DNA from: a virus
Taxonomy: Duplodnaviria > Caudoviricetes
Reading direction: 5' to 3' (one strand)
Virus record (IMG/VR): IMGVR_UViG_2974541498_000001
Span: 72,609 to 136,608 of that record
Length of the DNA stretch: 64,000 bases
Each line of letters opens with the position of its first letter. Positions within the stretch are counted from its first letter, which is position 1. The translations under genes and the position numbers were made by a program. The notes under the pieces are model-generated. The model saw only the letters and a program-made list of their open reading frames with translations. It did no database searches and was not told where the DNA came from. Shown in pieces: positions 2,275-63,271 of the stretch.

Positions 2275-4113
2275 ATGGCAATATATGTATATCCATCAAA
2301 TCAGAATGATAACATTCCAGGAATTTCTGTAACTATTAATACAGACTCCTTTACAGGATCTTCTAGCAATTCAGAAAAACCTTTAATGATTATTGGGGAA
2401 GCTGATGATGGTATTCCACAAACTGTTAGAACTTTTTCTAGCTATACACAAGCTAAACAAGAACTTAGAGGCGGGGAACTTCTTAAAGCGTTAGAACTTG
2501 CTTGGCAACCAGATTCAGATGGGACGTATTATGCAGGAAATATTATGGCAATGCGCTCACAACCAGCTACCCAAGCATCCTTGAAGAAAGGAACTTTGAC
2601 ATTTACTTCAAAGTTGTATTCAGAAAAGGCTAATAATATTCTAGTTAGCTTACAACCAAACAGAATTACTAATACTCAGCGGTTGGTTGTTTCATTCCCC
2701 GAAGATGGTGTTACTAATACCTATGATAATCTAGGGAATATATTCTCATTGTCTTACACAGGTAATGAACGCTATGCCGCTTATAAGATTGATACCGATG
2801 AAAATGGTTTTGCATCTCTTTTAACGCTATATGCTGGAGATAGTGTAAGTACAGCAGAACCTATCCAAAAGTTTATCCTTGGTGATAATTCCTTATATGT
2901 TAAGACTAACAGTCTTATTAATGCCATTAATCAAGTTGCTGGATTTACTGCTACTAGATTCTCTATTGGAAATAAGAATGTTTATACTAAGTATTATCAT
3001 GGCATTGATGAAACGCAATTAAGTGCTACTCCTAATAAACAATATGTATATGCTATTGAAGGAGACATTCTTAATACTGTTGGCGATTATGATAGCTATG
3101 TTTCCATCGGGTATGTTCCAGAAGGTACTCCAGAAGATCCAACTAATATTAAAGAAACTTCTATTAGTGATGGTGTTCATATTGAACTTGATGCTATGGC
3201 CGTTACAACTCCAATAGATAACTTTGAAACAACTGCTTTATCTGGAGCTTCCGTAGGAGTTTCTCCTGATTCTTGGACTAGCTTATTCAACCAGTTTACT
3301 GATTCATATGATAACAATGGATATCTTGGGTATTACTTGATTCCATTAACAGATGATGCGGCTATCCAAGCAGAAGCTACCGCCTTTGCTAATAATCAGG
3401 CTAGAGTTGGTAATGCTATGAGAGTCATTGTGGGTGCAGGAATTTCTGAACCAAAACAACAATTGATTAGCCGGTCACTAGAGCTGGATGATGCACGAGC
3501 AAACCTAGTAGGTAATTCTGCTATGGTAAAGATGTCTGATGGTACTACCCAAGACATGCCCGGATATATGCTTGCCGCTATGGTTGGTGGCCTTGCTTCT
3601 GGTATTGATATTGGAGATTCTATTACTAATAAGACGCTTAACCTTGTTAGCTTAGATCAGAACTTTACAACCGATGATATTAATGAGTTGACAGGTTCTG
3701 GAATAGTAACTATTAAATACCTTCAAAATAGATCGAGTAGCTCATTTAGAATTGTTGATGATGTTACTACTTCTACTAGGGTAGATGAACCATTAGAACA
3801 TGAAATGGCTATTGGTGAGAGTTCTGACTTCTTAGTTGCAGGTATTCGTGAAAAACTAGATCCATTTATTGGGAGCAAGATAAACACTGCGTATGCAAGT
3901 ACTCTTTCTTCTTACGTGCTTGAATATCTTTCTGATGTTAAAACAGAAGGAATTATCATGGATTATGACTCTAGCTCAGTAACTGTAACGATCGTTGGAT
4001 CTACTGCTAATATTGGTGCTACTGTATATCCTGATAGAACATTGAAGAAAATGGATATTGCTCTTCAATATAATACAGAAACTCTTACAAGTAGCAATAC
4101 AAGCATTGCCTAA
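2275..4113 (+). CDS. Contractile tail sheath protein
   Basis: 612 aa; SEKPLMIIG..G.P, LRGGELL.A.ELAW and FRIVDDVTT motifs. Confidence 0.93.
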   Translation: MAIYVYPSNQNDNIPGISVTINTDSFTGSSSNSEKPLMIIGEADDGIPQTVRTFSSYTQAKQELRGGELLKALELAWQPDSDGTYYAGNIMAMRSQPATQASLKKGTLTFTSKLYSEKANNILVSLQPNRITNTQRLVVSFPEDGVTNTYDNLGNIFSLSYTGNERYAAYKIDTDENGFASLLTLYAGDSVSTAEPIQKFILGDNSLYVKTNSLINAINQVAGFTATRFSIGNKNVYTKYYHGIDETQLSATPNKQYVYAIEGDILNTVGDYDSYVSIGYVPEGTPEDPTNIKETSISDGVHIELDAMAVTTPIDNFETTALSGASVGVSPDSWTSLFNQFTDSYDNNGYLGYYLIPLTDDAAIQAEATAFANNQARVGNAMRVIVGAGISEPKQQLISRSLELDDARANLVGNSAMVKMSDGTTQDMPGYMLAAMVGGLASGIDIGDSITNKTLNLVSLDQNFTTDDINELTGSGIVTIKYLQNRSSSSFRIVDDVTTSTRVDEPLEHEMAIGESSDFLVAGIREKLDPFIGSKINTAYASTLSSYVLEYLSDVKTEGIIMDYDSSSVTVTIVGSTANIGATVYPDRTLKKMDIALQYNTETLTSSNTSIA

Positions 4114-4134
4114 TAATAGAAAGGACTGATTTAC

Positions 4135-4578
4135 TTGGCAAAAGCGGCATCAGGTAGTTATGAACAAGGCTATCAGCAATCAGAAACAGGTACAGTAACT
4201 ACCATATTTATGAACTCAAAAGCAGTAGGTAGAGCAACATCGGCCACTGCCCAAATTGAGTATGGTACTACTGGTGTTTGGGGTATTGGTGATTATATGC
4301 CATATGAATACGTATTTATGCGGTATAATGGTCAACTTACGGTAGAAGGAATTAGAATGCGGACTAATGATATGGTTAGTGCCGGAATTGTTGCTCTAGG
4401 AGAAGATGTCCTAAAGCAAGGAGATACTCTAATTACTATTCAAGATAAGTATACGCACAACCTATTGGCTTCCTACAGTCATTGTACACCAGTAAGCTAT
4501 AACTTACAAGTTCGGGCTAATCAATTAGTTACAGAACAAGCAGTATTTAACTTCACAAGTGCTACACAAAAGAAGTAA
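4135..4578 (+). CDS. Tail tube protein
   Basis: 147 aa immediately after sheath; GRA.SA...EYGTTGV..IG..MP.E motif. Confidence 0.9.
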   Translation: MAKAASGSYEQGYQQSETGTVTTIFMNSKAVGRATSATAQIEYGTTGVWGIGDYMPYEYVFMRYNGQLTVEGIRMRTNDMVSAGIVALGEDVLKQGDTLITIQDKYTHNLLASYSHCTPVSYNLQVRANQLVTEQAVFNFTSATQKK

Positions 4579-51101: not shown

Positions 51102-51354
51102 AGTGGAACCTTTTCAACAATATATTGATAAGTTAAATAAATATAAAGAGTCACAAAAAGAAGTATTAGTCGAAAATAGAGATCAGAAATATACACATTC
51201 TGATGTTATTAGGATTACCTATGTTGGCAATAGATTTGCTTTAGGTGAAACGGTTGATTATGGAATTCCCTATACACTTAACTACGCAGATATGTATGCT
51301 AATAAGGGAAACACACTAAAAGTTAGATATAGAGACGAGGTTTTCGATGAATAA
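51085..51354 (+). CDS. Conserved hypothetical protein
   Basis: Between recA and sigma factor; PYTLNYAD motif. Confidence 0.55.
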   Translation: MPLANKVEPFQQYIDKLNKYKESQKEVLVENRDQKYTHSDVIRITYVGNRFALGETVDYGIPYTLNYADMYANKGNTLKVRYRDEVFDE

Positions 51355-52240
51355 TTATTTACCAAGAGATTCTGAAAACTTACTAAAGAAATATAAACCA
51401 TTAATTGATTCCACTTATGCTAGATATAAATATTTATTTACAAATACTATTGGATCGGAATCTTATATGCAGGGGGCTGAAGGCTCTCAAAACAGAGAAA
51501 TTCCTAATAAGTATGCCCAAGAAGATTTATATAGTTATATTTCAGAGCAATTTATTAAACTTATTAAGGAGTATGACCCTAATGGGGGTGTTGACTTACC
51601 TGGGTATTTAGCTAGTAAATTGCCTAGAAGAGTATTAGGATCTTATATTCATGGTAGAAGTAGAGATAGGCAACGAGAGAGTGTTTCCTATGAAAGCAAT
51701 GGAATAGAAACTGCTATGGCTACTACTCCTTCGGTTGATAATAGTAGTGTTGTTCAAATTGTTCAATTAGTTGAAGGCGATCTTGAAACTCCTATGGATA
51801 AATATATTTTTAATCTATTAACGAGTAAGAATGAAGATTTAACTAAGACGGAAATGTATCATAGAGTTCTATCAGCATTCCCTGGTATAAAGAAATCGGA
51901 GTATACTGAGCGTCTTGACTATATTAAAGGTAGAGTTTCAGAAGAGATTTATGATAATCATTTGCGTTTATTTGGTAGTTATTCTAATAATGCCTATGCT
52001 AATAGTACGGGAACTTTGAAAAGAACCGACAGGGTCACACACAAGAAAGACAACCTAGATTATTTGCCAACGGCATCTGTTACTTCTATTACTAAAGTAT
52101 CTTTAAATGATGCTGTATTTACTAAGGATGTAGATTATTCATATGAGGGCAAAGGAATTATTAAATGGATCTCTTCAAATAGACCAAAGGTTGGAGAAAA
52201 ATATGTTGTAGATTATATGTATAGATATTCTAGTGAATAG
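51347..52240 (+). CDS. Phage RNA polymerase sigma factor with extra C-terminal beta-rich domain
   Basis: RD.E.L..KY.PL, EDLYSYI.EQFIKL.KEYDP...VD.PGY...KL..R motif of Twort-like sigma factors. Confidence 0.85.
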   Translation: MNNYLPRDSENLLKKYKPLIDSTYARYKYLFTNTIGSESYMQGAEGSQNREIPNKYAQEDLYSYISEQFIKLIKEYDPNGGVDLPGYLASKLPRRVLGSYIHGRSRDRQRESVSYESNGIETAMATTPSVDNSSVVQIVQLVEGDLETPMDKYIFNLLTSKNEDLTKTEMYHRVLSAFPGIKKSEYTERLDYIKGRVSEEIYDNHLRLFGSYSNNAYANSTGTLKRTDRVTHKKDNLDYLPTASVTSITKVSLNDAVFTKDVDYSYEGKGIIKWISSNRPKVGEKYVVDYMYRYSSE

Positions 52241-52242
52241 AG

Positions 52243-52869
52243 ATGTTTATTTTGAGAAAGTCTAATGAAGCAGTTAAAGAAGATTTATCACCATTAATTG
52301 AGGAGGCCATTATTGAGGTGGAAAAAGAAGAGTTAAAGGGTACTCAGACGGAAAATATTCCAGATAAGGTAACGATTAAAGTAGGAAATACAGAAACTAC
52401 GGTAGATACTGATTTACCTAGTAAGTATAAGGCGGCAATTCCCTATATCGTTATTTTGATTTCTTGGGTAATTACTTTTGTTACTACTAAGTTTGGTTGG
52501 AAATTTCCGGGAACAAGTGAAGATATCACTACTTGGGTTACTTTATTAGTTTCCTTTGCATTAAGTATCTACGGAACTTGGCGGGATAATCCAATTACTA
52601 AGAAGGGCCAGTTCTTATCTATAATTGGTAAAGAACTAGAAGGATTATTGGGATCTATTGAGGGGCACACTAAGCCTACGACAGTATCCCCTAAGACTGC
52701 TGAAGAAACTACAGTGGAACCAACAACTGTTGAAGAAACTACAGTGGAACCAACAACTGTTGAAGAAACTACAGTAGCTCCTACGACTGTTGAAGAAACT
52801 ACAGTAGCCCCCACGACAGTAGAACCAACAACCGTTGATGAAACTACAGTAAATGTTAAACAGGCATAA
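52243..52869 (+). CDS. Holin (phiLC3-like, 2 TM) with Thr-rich repeat tail; true start may be downstream
   Basis: Two hydrophobic helices then YGTWRDNPITKKG; position after sigma factor. Confidence 0.78.
   Translation: MFILRKSNEAVKEDLSPLIEEAIIEVEKEELKGTQTENIPDKVTIKVGNTETTVDTDLPSKYKAAIPYIVILISWVITFVTTKFGWKFPGTSEDITTWVTLLVSFALSIYGTWRDNPITKKGQFLSIIGKELEGLLGSIEGHTKPTTVSPKTAEETTVEPTTVEETTVEPTTVEETTVAPTTVEETTVAPTTVEPTTVDETTVNVKQA
52675..52851 (+). repeat. 15/30-bp tandem repeat encoding about 12 TTVxP/TTVEE pentamers
   Basis: gaagaaactacagtggaaccaacaactgtt units. Confidence 0.95.
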
Positions 52870-52899
52870 TAGAATAAGCAACATATATTATTAAAAATT

Positions 52900-52925
52900 A
52901 GGACACTACGATTAGTGTCCTTTTT
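52900..52925 (+). terminator. Rho-independent terminator
   Basis: aggacacta-cgat-tagtgtccttttt. Confidence 0.85.
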
Positions 52926-52987
52926 CTATTGTCTAAATTATAAGTGAGGGAACAAAGTAAACTACTATAAAAGAGAGGTAAAATTCA

Positions 52988-53545
52988 ATGGCAAGTATTA
53001 ATGTAAATGATTATTTAACTGGGGCAAAGACAGTCCCCTTAGATGGAAAGTATTTAATAGCAAAAACGAGAGATGATGGATTTACTGGAACTTGGGCAGG
53101 AAATTATATTTATAAAGTCCAAAAGTCGGGCAATAACTATTATGTAATTGAACAAAAGTGGGACTTTGATAAGCTAGCATGGGTAGACAAGGATGCTCCT
53201 ATTATTAGATACGATGGGACTACTCTATTTTTTGCTACTAATACGCATATCGATCCATATAATGGGAGTGTCGGCAACTATAAAACAGTTACTCCAGATA
53301 AGGTAGAACATAATATTGTATTAGCTTTCTTGGCTTTCATTGCTGATGAGTTTGCTAATGCTAACTATGATGTCTTCCTAACTCATGATAACTTTATTGA
53401 TGACGAACTTGTTTCTAAAGTAAATCCTAGTTCGGGTACTACAGTTAAGCCAACAACGGTAGCTCCAACTACAGTTAAACCAACTACAGTGGCACCCACA
53501 ACGGTAGCCCCAACTACAGTTAAACCAACTACAGTTAAACCATAA
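52988..53545 (+). CDS. Putative virion decoration protein with TTV[K/A]P tail
   Basis: Occupies the locus of Ig-like virion proteins after holin in Twort-like phages; candidate late-promoter motif upstream; 7 pentamers at C-terminus. Confidence 0.5.
   Translation: MASINVNDYLTGAKTVPLDGKYLIAKTRDDGFTGTWAGNYIYKVQKSGNNYYVIEQKWDFDKLAWVDKDAPIIRYDGTTLFFATNTHIDPYNGSVGNYKTVTPDKVEHNIVLAFLAFIADEFANANYDVFLTHDNFIDDELVSKVNPSSGTTVKPTTVAPTTVKPTTVAPTTVAPTTVKPTTVKP
53438..53542 (+). repeat. 15-bp tandem repeat x7 encoding TTVKP/TTVAP
   Basis: actacagttaaacca-type units. Confidence 0.95.
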
Positions 53546-53560
53546 TAATAGGGGGCTAAT

Positions 53561-54538
53561 ATGGAAAAGAAGGTTAACTATATTTTCTGTGACCCCCAAG
53601 AATATCGGTTTTATTGGCAGGAACTTAATTATGTTAGGAATCTTATAGATATTGGTGTTTCTACAGATAACATCTATATACTAAATATAAAAAATAATGA
53701 AGATTATGCTCAAAACATTGTTAATCATTTTCCGGGGGTTCACTTATTTGAATTTGAGGATAAGCGAGATCGTGCAGGGAAGCAGTATGCGGCAACGCTA
53801 AAGCCTTGGCTGATGTGGCAATTCTTTGAGTTCTTCCCCGATAAAAAGGATGATGTATTTTTCTATACAGATTCTGACATTATTCTAAGCAAAAAAATAG
53901 AAGTTCCTGATGATTTAGATATCCACCACTGGTATGGATCAGATTGTAATTCATATTTAGGGATTGAATATATAAATAGCAAGAATTACCAAGACTCTAA
54001 TTTGCTGTCTGAGATGACTAGCAGTATCGGTTTAGATGAATCGTGGGTTATTAGTCACGATGATGCTTCTATTGGGGCACAATACCTTATGACAGGGTTA
54101 TCTGCTACGTACTGGAAGGATGTATATGATTCTTCCATAGCATTGAAAAAATACCTAGATAGCATTGAACCTAGATATTTAAAAAAGTATAAAAAGTATA
54201 ATCTAGACATTGATAATCCAATACAAAAATGGTGTGCAGAAATGTGGGCTACTTTATGGGTTATGGGAAAGCATGGCATTACCCCGAAAGTGTCAGATAA
54301 TCTTAAATTTTGCTGGATTGACTGGAAACTAAGTGATTGGACCTCAGGAAAGTATTCTATTATGCATGATGCTGGAGTTACTTCTAGTGATAATGGTATA
54401 TTTTATAAGTATGACTATGCAAATAAGGATATATTTAAGGATATGCCTAACTTGCTAAATAGATTAGATAAGGGAAAATGTGGTTATGCTTATGCTTTAG
54501 AATTGAATAAGACAGGAAAAAGAATTAAGGCTATATAA
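53561..54538 (+). CDS. GT-A glycosyltransferase, HPAT/SERGT-like putative protein O-glycosyltransferase
   Basis: Y...LKPWLM.QF, FYTDSDII (DxD), GAQYLM, QKWCAEMWA, IMHDAG. Confidence 0.72.
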   Translation: MEKKVNYIFCDPQEYRFYWQELNYVRNLIDIGVSTDNIYILNIKNNEDYAQNIVNHFPGVHLFEFEDKRDRAGKQYAATLKPWLMWQFFEFFPDKKDDVFFYTDSDIILSKKIEVPDDLDIHHWYGSDCNSYLGIEYINSKNYQDSNLLSEMTSSIGLDESWVISHDDASIGAQYLMTGLSATYWKDVYDSSIALKKYLDSIEPRYLKKYKKYNLDIDNPIQKWCAEMWATLWVMGKHGITPKVSDNLKFCWIDWKLSDWTSGKYSIMHDAGVTSSDNGIFYKYDYANKDIFKDMPNLLNRLDKGKCGYAYALELNKTGKRIKAI

Positions 54539-54575
54539 TTAGCCTTTTTTCTTTACATATTTTTAATAGATTCCC

Positions 54576-54629: not shown

Positions 54630-54974
54630 TTGAATATGTTTAAGAAATTACACAAGGGGTATCGAAGCTCTATCAATAGCCGATTAAAGACTTTCACTAA
54701 TAATTTTAATCACCCTATTCATCATAAGAGAAAACCTAATAATGAAGTTTGCGCCTATTATTTCGTAGCTTATTTATCTAATAAAGGAAAAGTATTTATT
54801 ACAGCATATAGTAATAATAACTATAGTATTAATCAAATTAGAAGCAAATGTGCTTCAAATAAAGGTAAATTAGTTGATGTTAAAATATTATTACTCAAGG
54901 ATGCTCAAAACTATTCACGGCAATTACAGAATAAATTAAAAGATATTCCATTTAAGGATATCAAAGTTGTTTGA
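54630..54974 (+). CDS. Basic hypothetical protein
   Basis: ORF with promoter and GGAG RBS. Confidence 0.45.
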   Translation: MNMFKKLHKGYRSSINSRLKTFTNNFNHPIHHKRKPNNEVCAYYFVAYLSNKGKVFITAYSNNNYSINQIRSKCASNKGKLVDVKILLLKDAQNYSRQLQNKLKDIPFKDIKVV

Positions 54975-55052
54975 CTCTGGTGCAATTAAAGCGGAGTAGC
55001 TAATCTAGTAAATAATAACTCTATGATTTAGCAATCTTAGGGTTATTTTTAC

Positions 55053-55081
55053 TTTACAAAAAATTAAATACATGCTATAAT
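55053..55081 (+). promoter_or_regulatory. SigmaA-type promoter
   Basis: TTTACA-17 bp-TATAAT with TG extension, after a hairpin/T-tract. Confidence 0.7.
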
Positions 55082-55101
55082 ACAGTAAGTGAGGTGATTA
55101 T

Positions 55102-55929
55102 GTGAACTTTATTGTAGGAATAAAGTCCTTAGACTTAGAAATACTAAATAATGTACTATATAAAAATAAGAAATTTCATGTATTTATATCCTATAATTAT
55201 AAAGATTTTTTATTATCAATTGAAAATATAAAGGACACTATTAGTCTAGGAGACACTGTAATTATATATAACAATTTTCCTATGAATAGCTATAATGATG
55301 ATTTGAAAAGCATTAGTAATCTTGCAGAAATTAAATATTTTAGTAATTGGCATAACTCTACTGAAATAAATGATAATCATTCTGATGCTTTCAATGACAT
55401 GCTGATATACCTTAATGAGAATAAGGAATTATCAGATGAAGAAGTTTATGAAATATCTAAATATAAAAAGGAAAATTCAGGAATTACAAACCAAATGGCT
55501 TTATTGCAGTATGGTATTGGATTACCTATTATGAATGAAAAAGGATTAGAACAATGGAAAACCTATTCATCATATATTACCGCTTCTAATATGGTAGCCG
55601 CTAAGCGTCTTATTAACAAAGAAAATACTATTTATAGCAAAGAATTCGGATGTGTTATAATCAATAATAACAACGAATTAGTGCCATATTTAGAAGAAGT
55701 TACTAAGCGAAATAATATGAGTTTAATCAATTTATCGGTTGCAGAAAATAGCATTGAAGTGATGGTAAGCACAACTATTCCAGAAACTTGTAAAAGAATT
55801 AGCGACAAACTTTTCTATAGTGAGGATTCTCCTTATTATATAAATGAAAATAAGTCAGTTTATTTTATTGATGGTACTGTAAAAGATATTAAAAGAGCAA
55901 TAAAACAATTATTGGATAAGAAGGATTAA
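55102..55929 (+). CDS. Hypothetical protein
   Basis: GAGGTG RBS, 275 aa. Confidence 0.5.
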   Translation: MNFIVGIKSLDLEILNNVLYKNKKFHVFISYNYKDFLLSIENIKDTISLGDTVIIYNNFPMNSYNDDLKSISNLAEIKYFSNWHNSTEINDNHSDAFNDMLIYLNENKELSDEEVYEISKYKKENSGITNQMALLQYGIGLPIMNEKGLEQWKTYSSYITASNMVAAKRLINKENTIYSKEFGCVIINNNNELVPYLEEVTKRNNMSLINLSVAENSIEVMVSTTIPETCKRISDKLFYSEDSPYYINENKSVYFIDGTVKDIKRAIKQLLDKKD

Positions 55930-62424: not shown

Positions 62425-62706
62425 TTGATAATATTGTTTGTATATATTAAGTTCGATGAAAATGGGTATATTACTGATTTTAAGAAAGAACCAGAAGATG
62501 GCTATACAAAATCATTTGTATTAAATAAAGATATTAAAAATTTTGTAAAGTTTAGCGATAAATTTAGATGGGATACAGATAGCCAAGCGATTATTACCCC
62601 AAGTAATCTTCCTAAGACAGTAGAATATGAAGATGCTATGAATCAGATTAACTCATTAAGTACAACGATTAATAGTTTAACTAATGTTATGATTGGAGGA
62701 ATTTAG
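62425..62706 (+). CDS. Small tail-fibre-associated protein (DUF2977-like)
   Basis: YIKFDENGYIT N-terminus, C-terminal coiled coil; precedes XkdX-like gene. Confidence 0.45.
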   Translation: MIILFVYIKFDENGYITDFKKEPEDGYTKSFVLNKDIKNFVKFSDKFRWDTDSQAIITPSNLPKTVEYEDAMNQINSLSTTINSLTNVMIGGI

Positions 62707-62710
62707 TAGC

Positions 62711-63271
62711 ATGGAAAAACATACTCCATTATTTATTCCAGTAGACTATGCTTATACTATTTTTAAGAACGTGGATCTACGATGGGTGTTCGTAAAGGTA
62801 AATGCCCCCTCTGGTCTTGGTATTAATAGAGAAGAATTTTATGAAATTACTAAGCAAGACTACTATGAAGCCGCAAAAGAAAATGGTTGGACTACCCTTC
62901 CTGATTTAACCACAGTAGCACCTACCACTGTTGAAGAAACCACAGTAGCACCAACCACTGTTGAAGAAACCACAGTAGCACCAACCACTGTTGAAGAAAC
63001 TACAGTAGCACCAACCACTGTTGAAGAAACTACAGTAGCCCCTACCACTGTTAAAGAAACCACAGTAGAACCAACTACTGTTGAAGAAACCACAGTAGAA
63101 CCAACTACTGTTGAAGAAACTACAGTAGAACCAACTACTGTTGAAGAAACTACAGTAGCACCTACTACGGTAGAACCTACTACGGTAGAACCTACTACGG
63201 TTGAAGAAACTACAGTAGCCCCTACCACTGTTGAAGAAACTACGGTAGCACCTACTACAGTAGCTCCATAA
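62711..63271 (+). CDS. XkdX-like protein with 120-aa mucin-like Thr-rich tail
   Basis: GGAGG RBS before ATG 62711; INREEFYEITKQDY resembles XkdX IT.EEY.EITG..Y; 24 TTVxx pentamers. Confidence 0.65.
   Translation: MEKHTPLFIPVDYAYTIFKNVDLRWVFVKVNAPSGLGINREEFYEITKQDYYEAAKENGWTTLPDLTTVAPTTVEETTVAPTTVEETTVAPTTVEETTVAPTTVEETTVAPTTVKETTVEPTTVEETTVEPTTVEETTVEPTTVEETTVAPTTVEPTTVEPTTVEETTVAPTTVEETTVAPTTVAP
62909..63268 (+). repeat. 15/30-bp tandem repeat x24 encoding TTVAP/TTVEE/TTVEP
   Basis: accacagtagcaccaaccactgttgaagaa units. Confidence 0.97.

Follow-up and report, generated by a model that had tools for sequence, protein, structure and literature searches.

A gene in a 64-kb stretch of Lactobacillus-type phage DNA (the window) probably encodes a cytoplasmic glycosyltransferase (GT) that initiates O-glycosylation of threonine-rich tails on the phage's own proteins, an activity predicted here from the gene, its family and its neighbours. 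The gene lies directly behind that of a Thr-tailed protein, as in most carriers of the family, and for this reason the enzyme probably sugar-coats phage proteins. The window makes up the right-hand 64 kb of a virus record of 136.6 kb; among deposited genomes its closest relative is that of Levilactobacillus phage ENFP1 (Herelleviridae, Tybeckvirus), with 86% DNA identity over the window region.

The candidate GT gene is an open reading frame of 325 codons with an ATG start. A preliminary description had picked out this frame and four motifs within it, all of which are found in the places given and belong to the core that a large family conserves:

53561-54538, + strand: GT gene; 325 aa, soluble, GT-A fold of GT8/HPAT-like type, phrog_4417
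53801-53824, + strand: KPWLMWQF motif, residues 81-88; K81-P82 conserved
53867-53884, + strand: TDSDII, residues 103-108; contains the DxD
53870-53878, + strand: D104-S-D106, the DxD motif; D104 and D106 invariant in 79 homologues
54224-54250, + strand: QKWCAEMWA, residues 222-230, the family signature helix; W224 and M228 invariant, Q222 at least 90% conserved
54359-54370, + strand: IMHD, residues 267-270, a motif quoted in the preliminary description
54365-54409, + strand: H269 to K283, the H-[ND]-A-G ... F-x-K-G motif; both residues invariant in 79 homologues

Across an alignment of 79 homologues at 25-95% identity, Y76, D104, D106, G172, W224, M228, F250, H269 and K283 are invariant, whilst S127, A173, Q174 and Q222 are conserved in at least 90% of sequences. 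Motifs that are retained over such divergence are not chance strings. The KPWLMWQF region has the consensus S-I/L-K-P-x-L in the 79 sequences; in an alignment of 12 closer homologues, K81 and P82 are invariant, as is the whole of A226-E227-M228-W229-A230. D104-S-D106 would bind the metal and the nucleotide-sugar; in the structural model it follows strand E99-102, the usual position in GT-A enzymes. By analogy with GT8 enzymes, H269 may be the distal His metal ligand and K283 the diphosphate-binding Lys, as D104, D106, H269 and K283 occur in the order expected for the GT8 DxD, distal His and Lys, an equivalence drawn by order and not by superposition. No hydrophobic segment able to span a membrane is found in the 325 residues, so the enzyme should act in the cytoplasm.

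That the protein is a glycosyltransferase, as previously claimed, is borne out by its AlphaFold2 model, built from the 12-sequence alignment (pLDDT 90.7, pTM 0.90), which predicts with confidence a GT-A fold: an alpha/beta/alpha sandwich of Rossmann-like type in which the fourth strand leads into the DxD. Foldseek matches the model to WbbM, GT6 blood-group transferases, UGGT and LgtC (E ~1e-6, TM 0.40-0.47), at identities of 7-14%. The closest neighbours of solved structure are GT8-type enzymes, and several of the top ones act on proteins or glycoproteins. In BFVD, only uncharacterised phage proteins are matched, followed by viral GT8s. A profile of the 12 homologues found no match at E <= 10 among all PDB sequences, and neither the GT protein nor any other part of the genome gave a sequence match to Pfam GT8 (PF01501). 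Because the fold neighbours are GT8-type, the chemistry may be retaining, which would yield an alpha-linked sugar as in mucin-type O-glycosylation.

The protein belongs to phrog_4417, a family annotated as of unknown function (E 5.8e-70; residues 6-317 cover positions 2-290 of a 293-position profile), and the sources examined give no functional name for any member. It is a large family: an exhaustive HMMER search returned 640 clusters at 50% identity (E <= 0.001), and the signature Q-x-W-[CTA]-[AS]-[EDS]-M-[WY]-[ASV] alone recovered at least 591 confirmed relatives in IMG/VR. By tblastn, members are found in 73 deposited phage genomes, whose hosts include Enterococcus, Lactobacillus, Staphylococcus, Lactococcus and Clostridium. 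A search of GTDB species genomes with the 12-sequence alignment located a further 56 loci, mostly in Bacillota, with some in Bacteroidota and one in Saccharimonadales. Some members carry the domain in fusion with GT2, GT32, GT6 or Methyltransf_24 domains, as would be expected of a glycan-building enzyme.

HPAT1-3 (GT95) and SGT1 (GT96) are the hydroxyproline O-arabinosyltransferases and the peptidyl-serine alpha-galactosyltransferase of plants and algae; GT95 enzymes move L-Araf to Hyp, and GT96 moves Gal to Ser in Ser-Hyp4. The preliminary description had called the phage protein HPAT/SERGT-like. Remote kinship with these enzymes is upheld through relatives of the window protein, but the protein itself falls below the cut-off of the Pfam HPAT family (PF23452) and is without the anchor. 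The window GT matches no Pfam family, PF23452 being absent even at E <= 10. When the 79 homologues were scanned singly, however, PF23452 was the family matched most often (four of the 79) and the only GT family matched by more than one. The strongest case, the full-length homologue P0365, passes the curated cut-off (27.8 bits against 23.9) and covers profile positions 48-229 of 307, including the DxD and Q-x-W-x-A-E-M-W regions; its alignment to the window GT spans 317 residues (BLASTP E 4e-32). All four are collinear with the profile, and the other three score below the cut-off: P0032 (21.9 bits, residues 9-242 on 9-230), P0109 (13.4 bits, residues 62-232 on 65-226) and P0079 (12.7 bits, residues 75-244 on 79-240). 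As a lead, of the 30 named ESM-Atlas clusters nearest to the protein, 19 also list PF23452, which is on 10% of members in the one such cluster inspected. Searches with PF23452 and PF23741 of the phage genome, and with PF23452 of five bacterial genomes carrying homologues, gave no match, a weak negative in both cases as the controls were silent too.

By transitivity through P0365, the window GT is homologous to Pfam HPAT, and the sequence comparisons place the phage family, as a distant relative, at the edge of HPAT as Pfam defines it. The marks of GT95 and GT96 in the strict sense, a membrane anchor (type II in HPAT, type I in SGT1) and a place in the secretory pathway, are absent from the phage protein, and no GT95 or GT96 entry is present among the solved-structure matches listed. 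Best matches to GT8 enzymes that modify polysaccharide or DNA, together with a lack of peptide-acceptor activity, had been put forward as grounds for rejecting the HPAT idea. The matches are indeed GT8-type, but this does not refute it, since HPATs are themselves described as GT8-related (PMC4908140) and the GT8-type fold of the phage GT thus agrees with the idea. GT95 has in turn been described as related to GT96 (PMC4908140, PMC8012813), and HPATs are regarded as plant-specific (PMC12115135).

Reading along the + strand, a gene for a RecA/UvsX-like recombinase comes first, then a small ORF and the genes of a sigma factor, the holin-like protein and an Ig-like protein; the GT follows, and after it two ORFs without family and an SbcD-type exonuclease. 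The GT is found here in a recombination and sigma-factor region beside the holin, and not in the head-tail module. The features of the locus, together with a more distant gene of the same kind, are:

52243-52869, + strand: holin-like membrane protein, 208 aa, second predicted substrate; TTVE[EP]/TTVAP tail from about 52675
52900-52921, + strand: terminator-like hairpin upstream of the Ig-like gene; 9-bp stem, then a T-run
52988-53545, + strand: Ig-like-family protein, 185 aa, predicted main substrate; ends 15 nt before the GT start
53438-53542, + strand: seven TTV[KA]P units in the C-terminal tail of the Ig-like protein, a predicted O-glycosylation tag; period 15, 7.0 copies
54527-54546, + strand: terminator-like hairpin overlapping the GT stop codon; 7-bp stem, then a T-run
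62693-63271, + strand: 192-aa protein, third predicted substrate; N-domain of about 70 aa, then 24 TTVxP/TTVEE units

The two hairpins bracket just two genes, those of the Ig-like protein and the GT, and the 15-nt gap between them holds a Shine-Dalgarno sequence. The Ig-like protein matches phrog_1240 (E 3.5e-27) and phrog_215 (E 1e-15), and the seven units make up its last 35 residues. In the 99%-identical phages L148 and L149, the sole two near-identical phages from a locus search with the Ig-like N-domain, the Ig-like protein has 6 tail units; in these two phages the tails differ by whole units, in frame. ENFP1 carries tails with TTVAP units. The holin-like protein scores 26.4 bits against PF04688 (Holin_SPP1), for which the cut-off is 27, and matches the holin family phrog_263 (E 3e-10); its gene contains repeats at 52681-52824. 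The gene of the 192-aa protein has a tandem repeat of period 30 and 11.5 copies at 62908-63252. A fourth such protein, of 92 aa, is encoded outside the window between the portal and prohead-protease genes and belongs to the head module. In a TT-dipeptide screen of all ORFs of the 136.6-kb genome, TTVxP repeats were found in these four and no others; the Ig-like and holin-like genes, two of the four, stand directly upstream of the GT. The TTVxP tails are only 40-50% Thr. In this phage, a Herelleviridae myovirus, the tag is TTVxP rather than poly-Thr, and one of the tagged proteins is holin-like.

The pairing of GT and Thr-rich tail recurs throughout the family. In phiFL1A, the GT homologue follows the major tail protein, and both that protein and a putative capsid protein end in poly-Thr. 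Poly-Thr or (T)n-V-K-P repeats also form the ends of nearby proteins in bIL285, iLp84, VPE25 and Bacchae, where the bearers are capsid, tail-tube or small structural proteins, and the same pairing is seen in 80 IMG/VR loci. Bacillota prophages encode a protein of about 210 aa with a terminal Thr run whose gene stops a few bases from the GT start, along with Thr-run proteins of about 105 and 390 aa, 1.8 and 2.1 kb upstream of the GT. A 'Thr-tag + GT' module is defined here as a same-strand Thr-tailed ORF within about 150 bp of the GT, and the window locus contains one. With GTs dereplicated at 60% identity and ORFs called mechanically, a Thr-run ORF on the same strand is found no more than 150 bp from the GT in 13 of 16 GT clusters. 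Sorted by distance from the GT, Thr-run ORFs make up 14 of 28 when adjacent, 12 of 112 at 150 bp to 3 kb, and none of 116 beyond 3 kb; the comparison of adjacent ORFs with those more than 6 kb away (0 of 43) gives a Fisher p of 1.7e-7.

Such context is correlative, and three of the 16 clusters have no adjacent Thr-run ORF. Both points favour a different acceptor, be it a small molecule, a nucleotide-sugar intermediate or another protein site, with the tails merely sharing mobile structural-gene cassettes with the enzyme. The identity of the partners makes this improbable. They are mutually unrelated (capsid, tail tube, small head, Ig-like, holin-like and large fibre-like proteins), the Thr-rich tract being the one trait they have in common, and this pattern fits a relation between enzyme and tag rather than the hitch-hiking of a cassette.

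A complementary observation comes from relatives of the Ig-like protein. Orthologues of its N-domain occur in 470 Herelleviridae records, where they are annotated as Ig-like or structural. Three of these, Listeria phage LP-083-2, Enterococcus phage EF24C and Staphylococcus phage phiIPLA-RODI, keep the order sigma factor, holin, Ig-like protein and have no member of the GT family. In these three phages the holins stop just after a conserved W..N..T.KG motif and the Ig-like orthologues have no Thr-rich tail; in the GT-positive ENFP1 and Bacchae, the tails are present. To judge by eye, the C-terminal place of the Listeria Ig-like orthologue is filled by an apparent further Ig-type domain, which hints that the Thr-rich tail may replace another exposed module of the protein.

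Neither this tail loss nor the tight adjacency to Thr-tailed ORFs is explained if the GT modifies a host envelope glycopolymer, such as teichoic acid or cell-wall polysaccharide, blocking superinfection or altering receptors, and the tails are unrelated linkers. GTs with which phages modify the envelope are a familiar class, and LPS or polysaccharides are the acceptors of many GT8-type enzymes, including LgtC and WbbM among the top fold matches. Nevertheless, the GT has neither a membrane segment nor a signal. In temperate siphophages, moreover, the gene is found between capsid or tail-tube genes and chaperone genes, that is, in the late head-tail operon and not in the lysogeny module. An envelope substrate, and with it the idea of a seroconversion GT, is therefore given little credence.

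Under the favoured model of tail glycosylation, a soluble, metal-dependent (Mn2+-type) GT-A enzyme would take a host nucleotide-sugar and transfer the first, and possibly the only, sugar to the threonine hydroxyls of the Thr-rich, Pro-spaced TTVxP tails before assembly. Threonine is the predicted acceptor. The targeted tracts would be disordered, spaced by Pro, Val or Ala, and borne by phage proteins in the cytoplasm. The primary substrate would be the Ig-like protein from the same hairpin-bracketed unit, with the holin-like protein, the 192-aa protein at 62693 and the 92-aa protein of the head module as further candidates. Exposed tails would then bear a mucin-like brush of glycans, which may contribute to shielding, stability or adhesion of the particle.

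The preliminary description had favoured an initiating peptide:sugar transferase over an enzyme acting on DNA or polysaccharide. This prediction is well supported by the Thr-tail context and by the lack of another GT in the genome, where no GT2, GT1/4 or GT8 Pfam match was found; GT2 and GT1/4 likewise went unmatched in the complete genomes of five further phages with a member of the family. If the phage does glycosylate its tails, its only recognisable GT must be the initiating transferase. Certain observations count against tail glycosylation: the window protein itself reaches no Pfam GT threshold, three of the 16 clusters have no Thr-run neighbour, the gene lies outside the head-tail module in this phage, and one of the tagged proteins, the holin-like one, is no obvious virion component. 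Thr/Pro-rich linkers are, in addition, common in surface proteins that are not glycosylated. A bolder suggestion, and a rather doubtful one, is that the Thr tract is a portable tag, read by one HPAT-like enzyme, that has spread past the virion proteins to the holin-like protein so that lysis is also tuned by O-glycosylation of a holin tail, the phage family deriving from a peptide-directed ancestor common with the supposedly plant-specific GT95/GT96.

It might also be proposed that the protein is a catalytically dead member of the fold with a structural or chaperone role for the Thr-tailed proteins, in keeping with the position of the gene beside assembly genes in siphophages. The strict invariance of the DxD, His and Lys across 79 diverged homologues, and the fusion of the domain to active-type GT and methyltransferase domains, make this very unlikely. 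A DNA-modifying GT adding sugar to hydroxymethylated bases is scarcely credible: large virulent phages often encode DNA glycosyltransferases and the gene is near recombination and replication genes in the window, but temperate phages of 35-40 kb commonly have homologues within their structural operons, and, as weak evidence, no DNA-glycosyltransferase is among the best structure matches listed. None of the four alternatives explains the co-distribution of enzyme and tag.

If the model is correct, a sugar coat would be found on many phages whose hosts are Gram-positive bacteria of dairy, gut or clinical origin. This would bear on phage therapy, through immune recognition and mucus adherence, as well as on phage stability and the reading of virion proteomics. 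It would also provide a one-enzyme, one-tag system for the cytoplasmic O-glycosylation of chosen proteins in bacteria, and the plant GT95/GT96 enzymes would gain a relative that is soluble and microbial. No literature on the GT family or on Thr-tailed virion proteins in Firmicutes phages was found in a search of incomplete coverage, and in the literature searched mycobacteriophages are the only phages shown to glycosylate their virions with enzymes of their own.

According to Freeman et al. 2023, as cited in PMC12363180 and also in PMC13313380, the mycobacteriophages Che8 (gp108-110), Corndog and Myrna use their own GTs to decorate capsid and tail-tube proteins, and this glycosylation shields particles from antibodies. 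The logic of a phage-encoded enzyme acting on a phage-encoded structural protein would be common to both systems. The enzymes, in contrast, belong to unrelated families. Pfam assigns Che8 gp108 to GT2 plus a methyltransferase, finds gp109 GT2-like and puts gp110 in GT25, and comparison of gp108-110 with the phage GT family by hhalign gave probabilities of 0.1-0.2%, indicating no profile similarity. The system described here further differs in having a single GT coupled to a Thr-rich tag, and in its Bacillota and Bacteroidota hosts; the organisms counted across the 73 tblastn records include no Mycobacterium phage.

Chlorovirus PBCV-1 places atypical N-linked glycans on Asn through the action of several enzymes. 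The phage GT is a much weaker fold match to this capsid glycosylation machinery (A64R and its partners). Closer comparators are the protein-directed transferases of GT8 type, namely glycogenin, Streptococcus pneumoniae GlyE, the Skp1 alpha-galactosyltransferase and UGGT. Glycogenin glucosylates itself on Tyr, and GlyE contributes to the glycan of a serine-rich-repeat adhesin. Identity between these enzymes and the phage GT is only 7-12%, with no Pfam GT8 match, and the Q-x-W-x-A-E-M-W helix and a helical insertion of about 30 residues (H182-212 in the model) are peculiar to the phage family.

With HPAT and SGT1, the phage enzyme shares the GT-A fold with a DxD and, on the phage side as a prediction, the transfer of a first sugar onto hydroxyl side chains of a repetitive, Pro-containing peptide. 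Unlike them, it is soluble and has no membrane anchor, and it would work in the bacterial cytoplasm rather than the Golgi. Its probable acceptor also differs, being Thr in TTVxP or poly-Thr tracts in place of Hyp, or of Ser beside Hyp.

When window 52675-53545 is compared with two near-identical phages (loci L148, positions 3418-4209, and L149, positions 3415-4206), the N-terminal domain of the Ig-like protein is 99% identical, whilst its TTVxP units number six in both phages against seven in the window. The holin-like protein also carries fewer units in these phages than in the window. The tails differ by whole units, which is in-frame variation in repeat number. These genes and others considered here are as follows.

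Window 51347-52240: sigma factor (phrog_1025).
Window 52243-52869: holin-like protein (resembling PF04688; its score of 26.4 bits falls below the cut-off of 27).
Window 54630-55929: two ORFs downstream of the glycosyltransferase, of 114 and 275 aa.
Window 62425-62706: gene overlapping the next from upstream (phrog_24421).
Window 62693-63271: 192-aa protein; N-terminal domain of about 70 aa, then 24 TTVxP/TTVEE units.
Genome 67458-67736 (L087:7459-7737), outside the window: 92-aa protein, encoded between the portal and prohead-protease genes.

The 92-aa protein, which ends in TTVTPTTVAPTTT, matches phrog_14018 (‘major tail protein’), a match that probably reflects a small Ig-like decoration domain of the head or tail. 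This match, together with the position of its gene, makes it the clearest virion-module member of the tagged set. The 192-aa protein is encoded 8 kb downstream of the glycosyltransferase, and its repeat has a period of 30 with 11.5 copies. The holin-like protein has a TTVE[EP]/TTVAP tail of about 60 aa, which lies past the position at which its orthologues in Listeria LP-083-2 and Enterococcus EF24C terminate. The glycosyltransferase could reach this tail if it is cytoplasmic, and a link between lysis timing and glycosylation is possible.

The sigma factor has an additional C-terminal stretch of about 75 aa matching DUF4815 (PF16075; E 2.8e-7, slightly below the cut-off) and phrog_877, a domain that elsewhere occurs in large structural proteins. 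Neither ORF downstream of the glycosyltransferase matched a Pfam or PHROG family. The 114-aa ORF has no counterpart in the Levilactobacillus phage ENFP1, where a homologue of the 275-aa protein directly follows the glycosyltransferase.

Homologues of the glycosyltransferase are also found in Bacteroidota (Pedobacter, Chitinophaga, Niabella and Deminuibacter) and in a Saccharimonadales MAG (among loci L108, L130-L132, L136, L137 and L138-L140). In L108 and L137, an ORF with a threonine run lies immediately upstream. The analysis of gene surroundings covered copies with the exact signature pattern, which several of the remaining Bacteroidota copies do not have.

In five long relatives (P0026, P0038, P0080, P0126 and P0152), the glycosyltransferase domain is fused with GT2, GT32 (Gly_transf_sug), GT6 or Methyltransf_24 domains. 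Gp108 of mycobacteriophage Che8, from an unrelated system, likewise combines a glycosyltransferase with Methyltransf_24/TylF in one protein, and this shared pairing suggests convergent glycan methylation.
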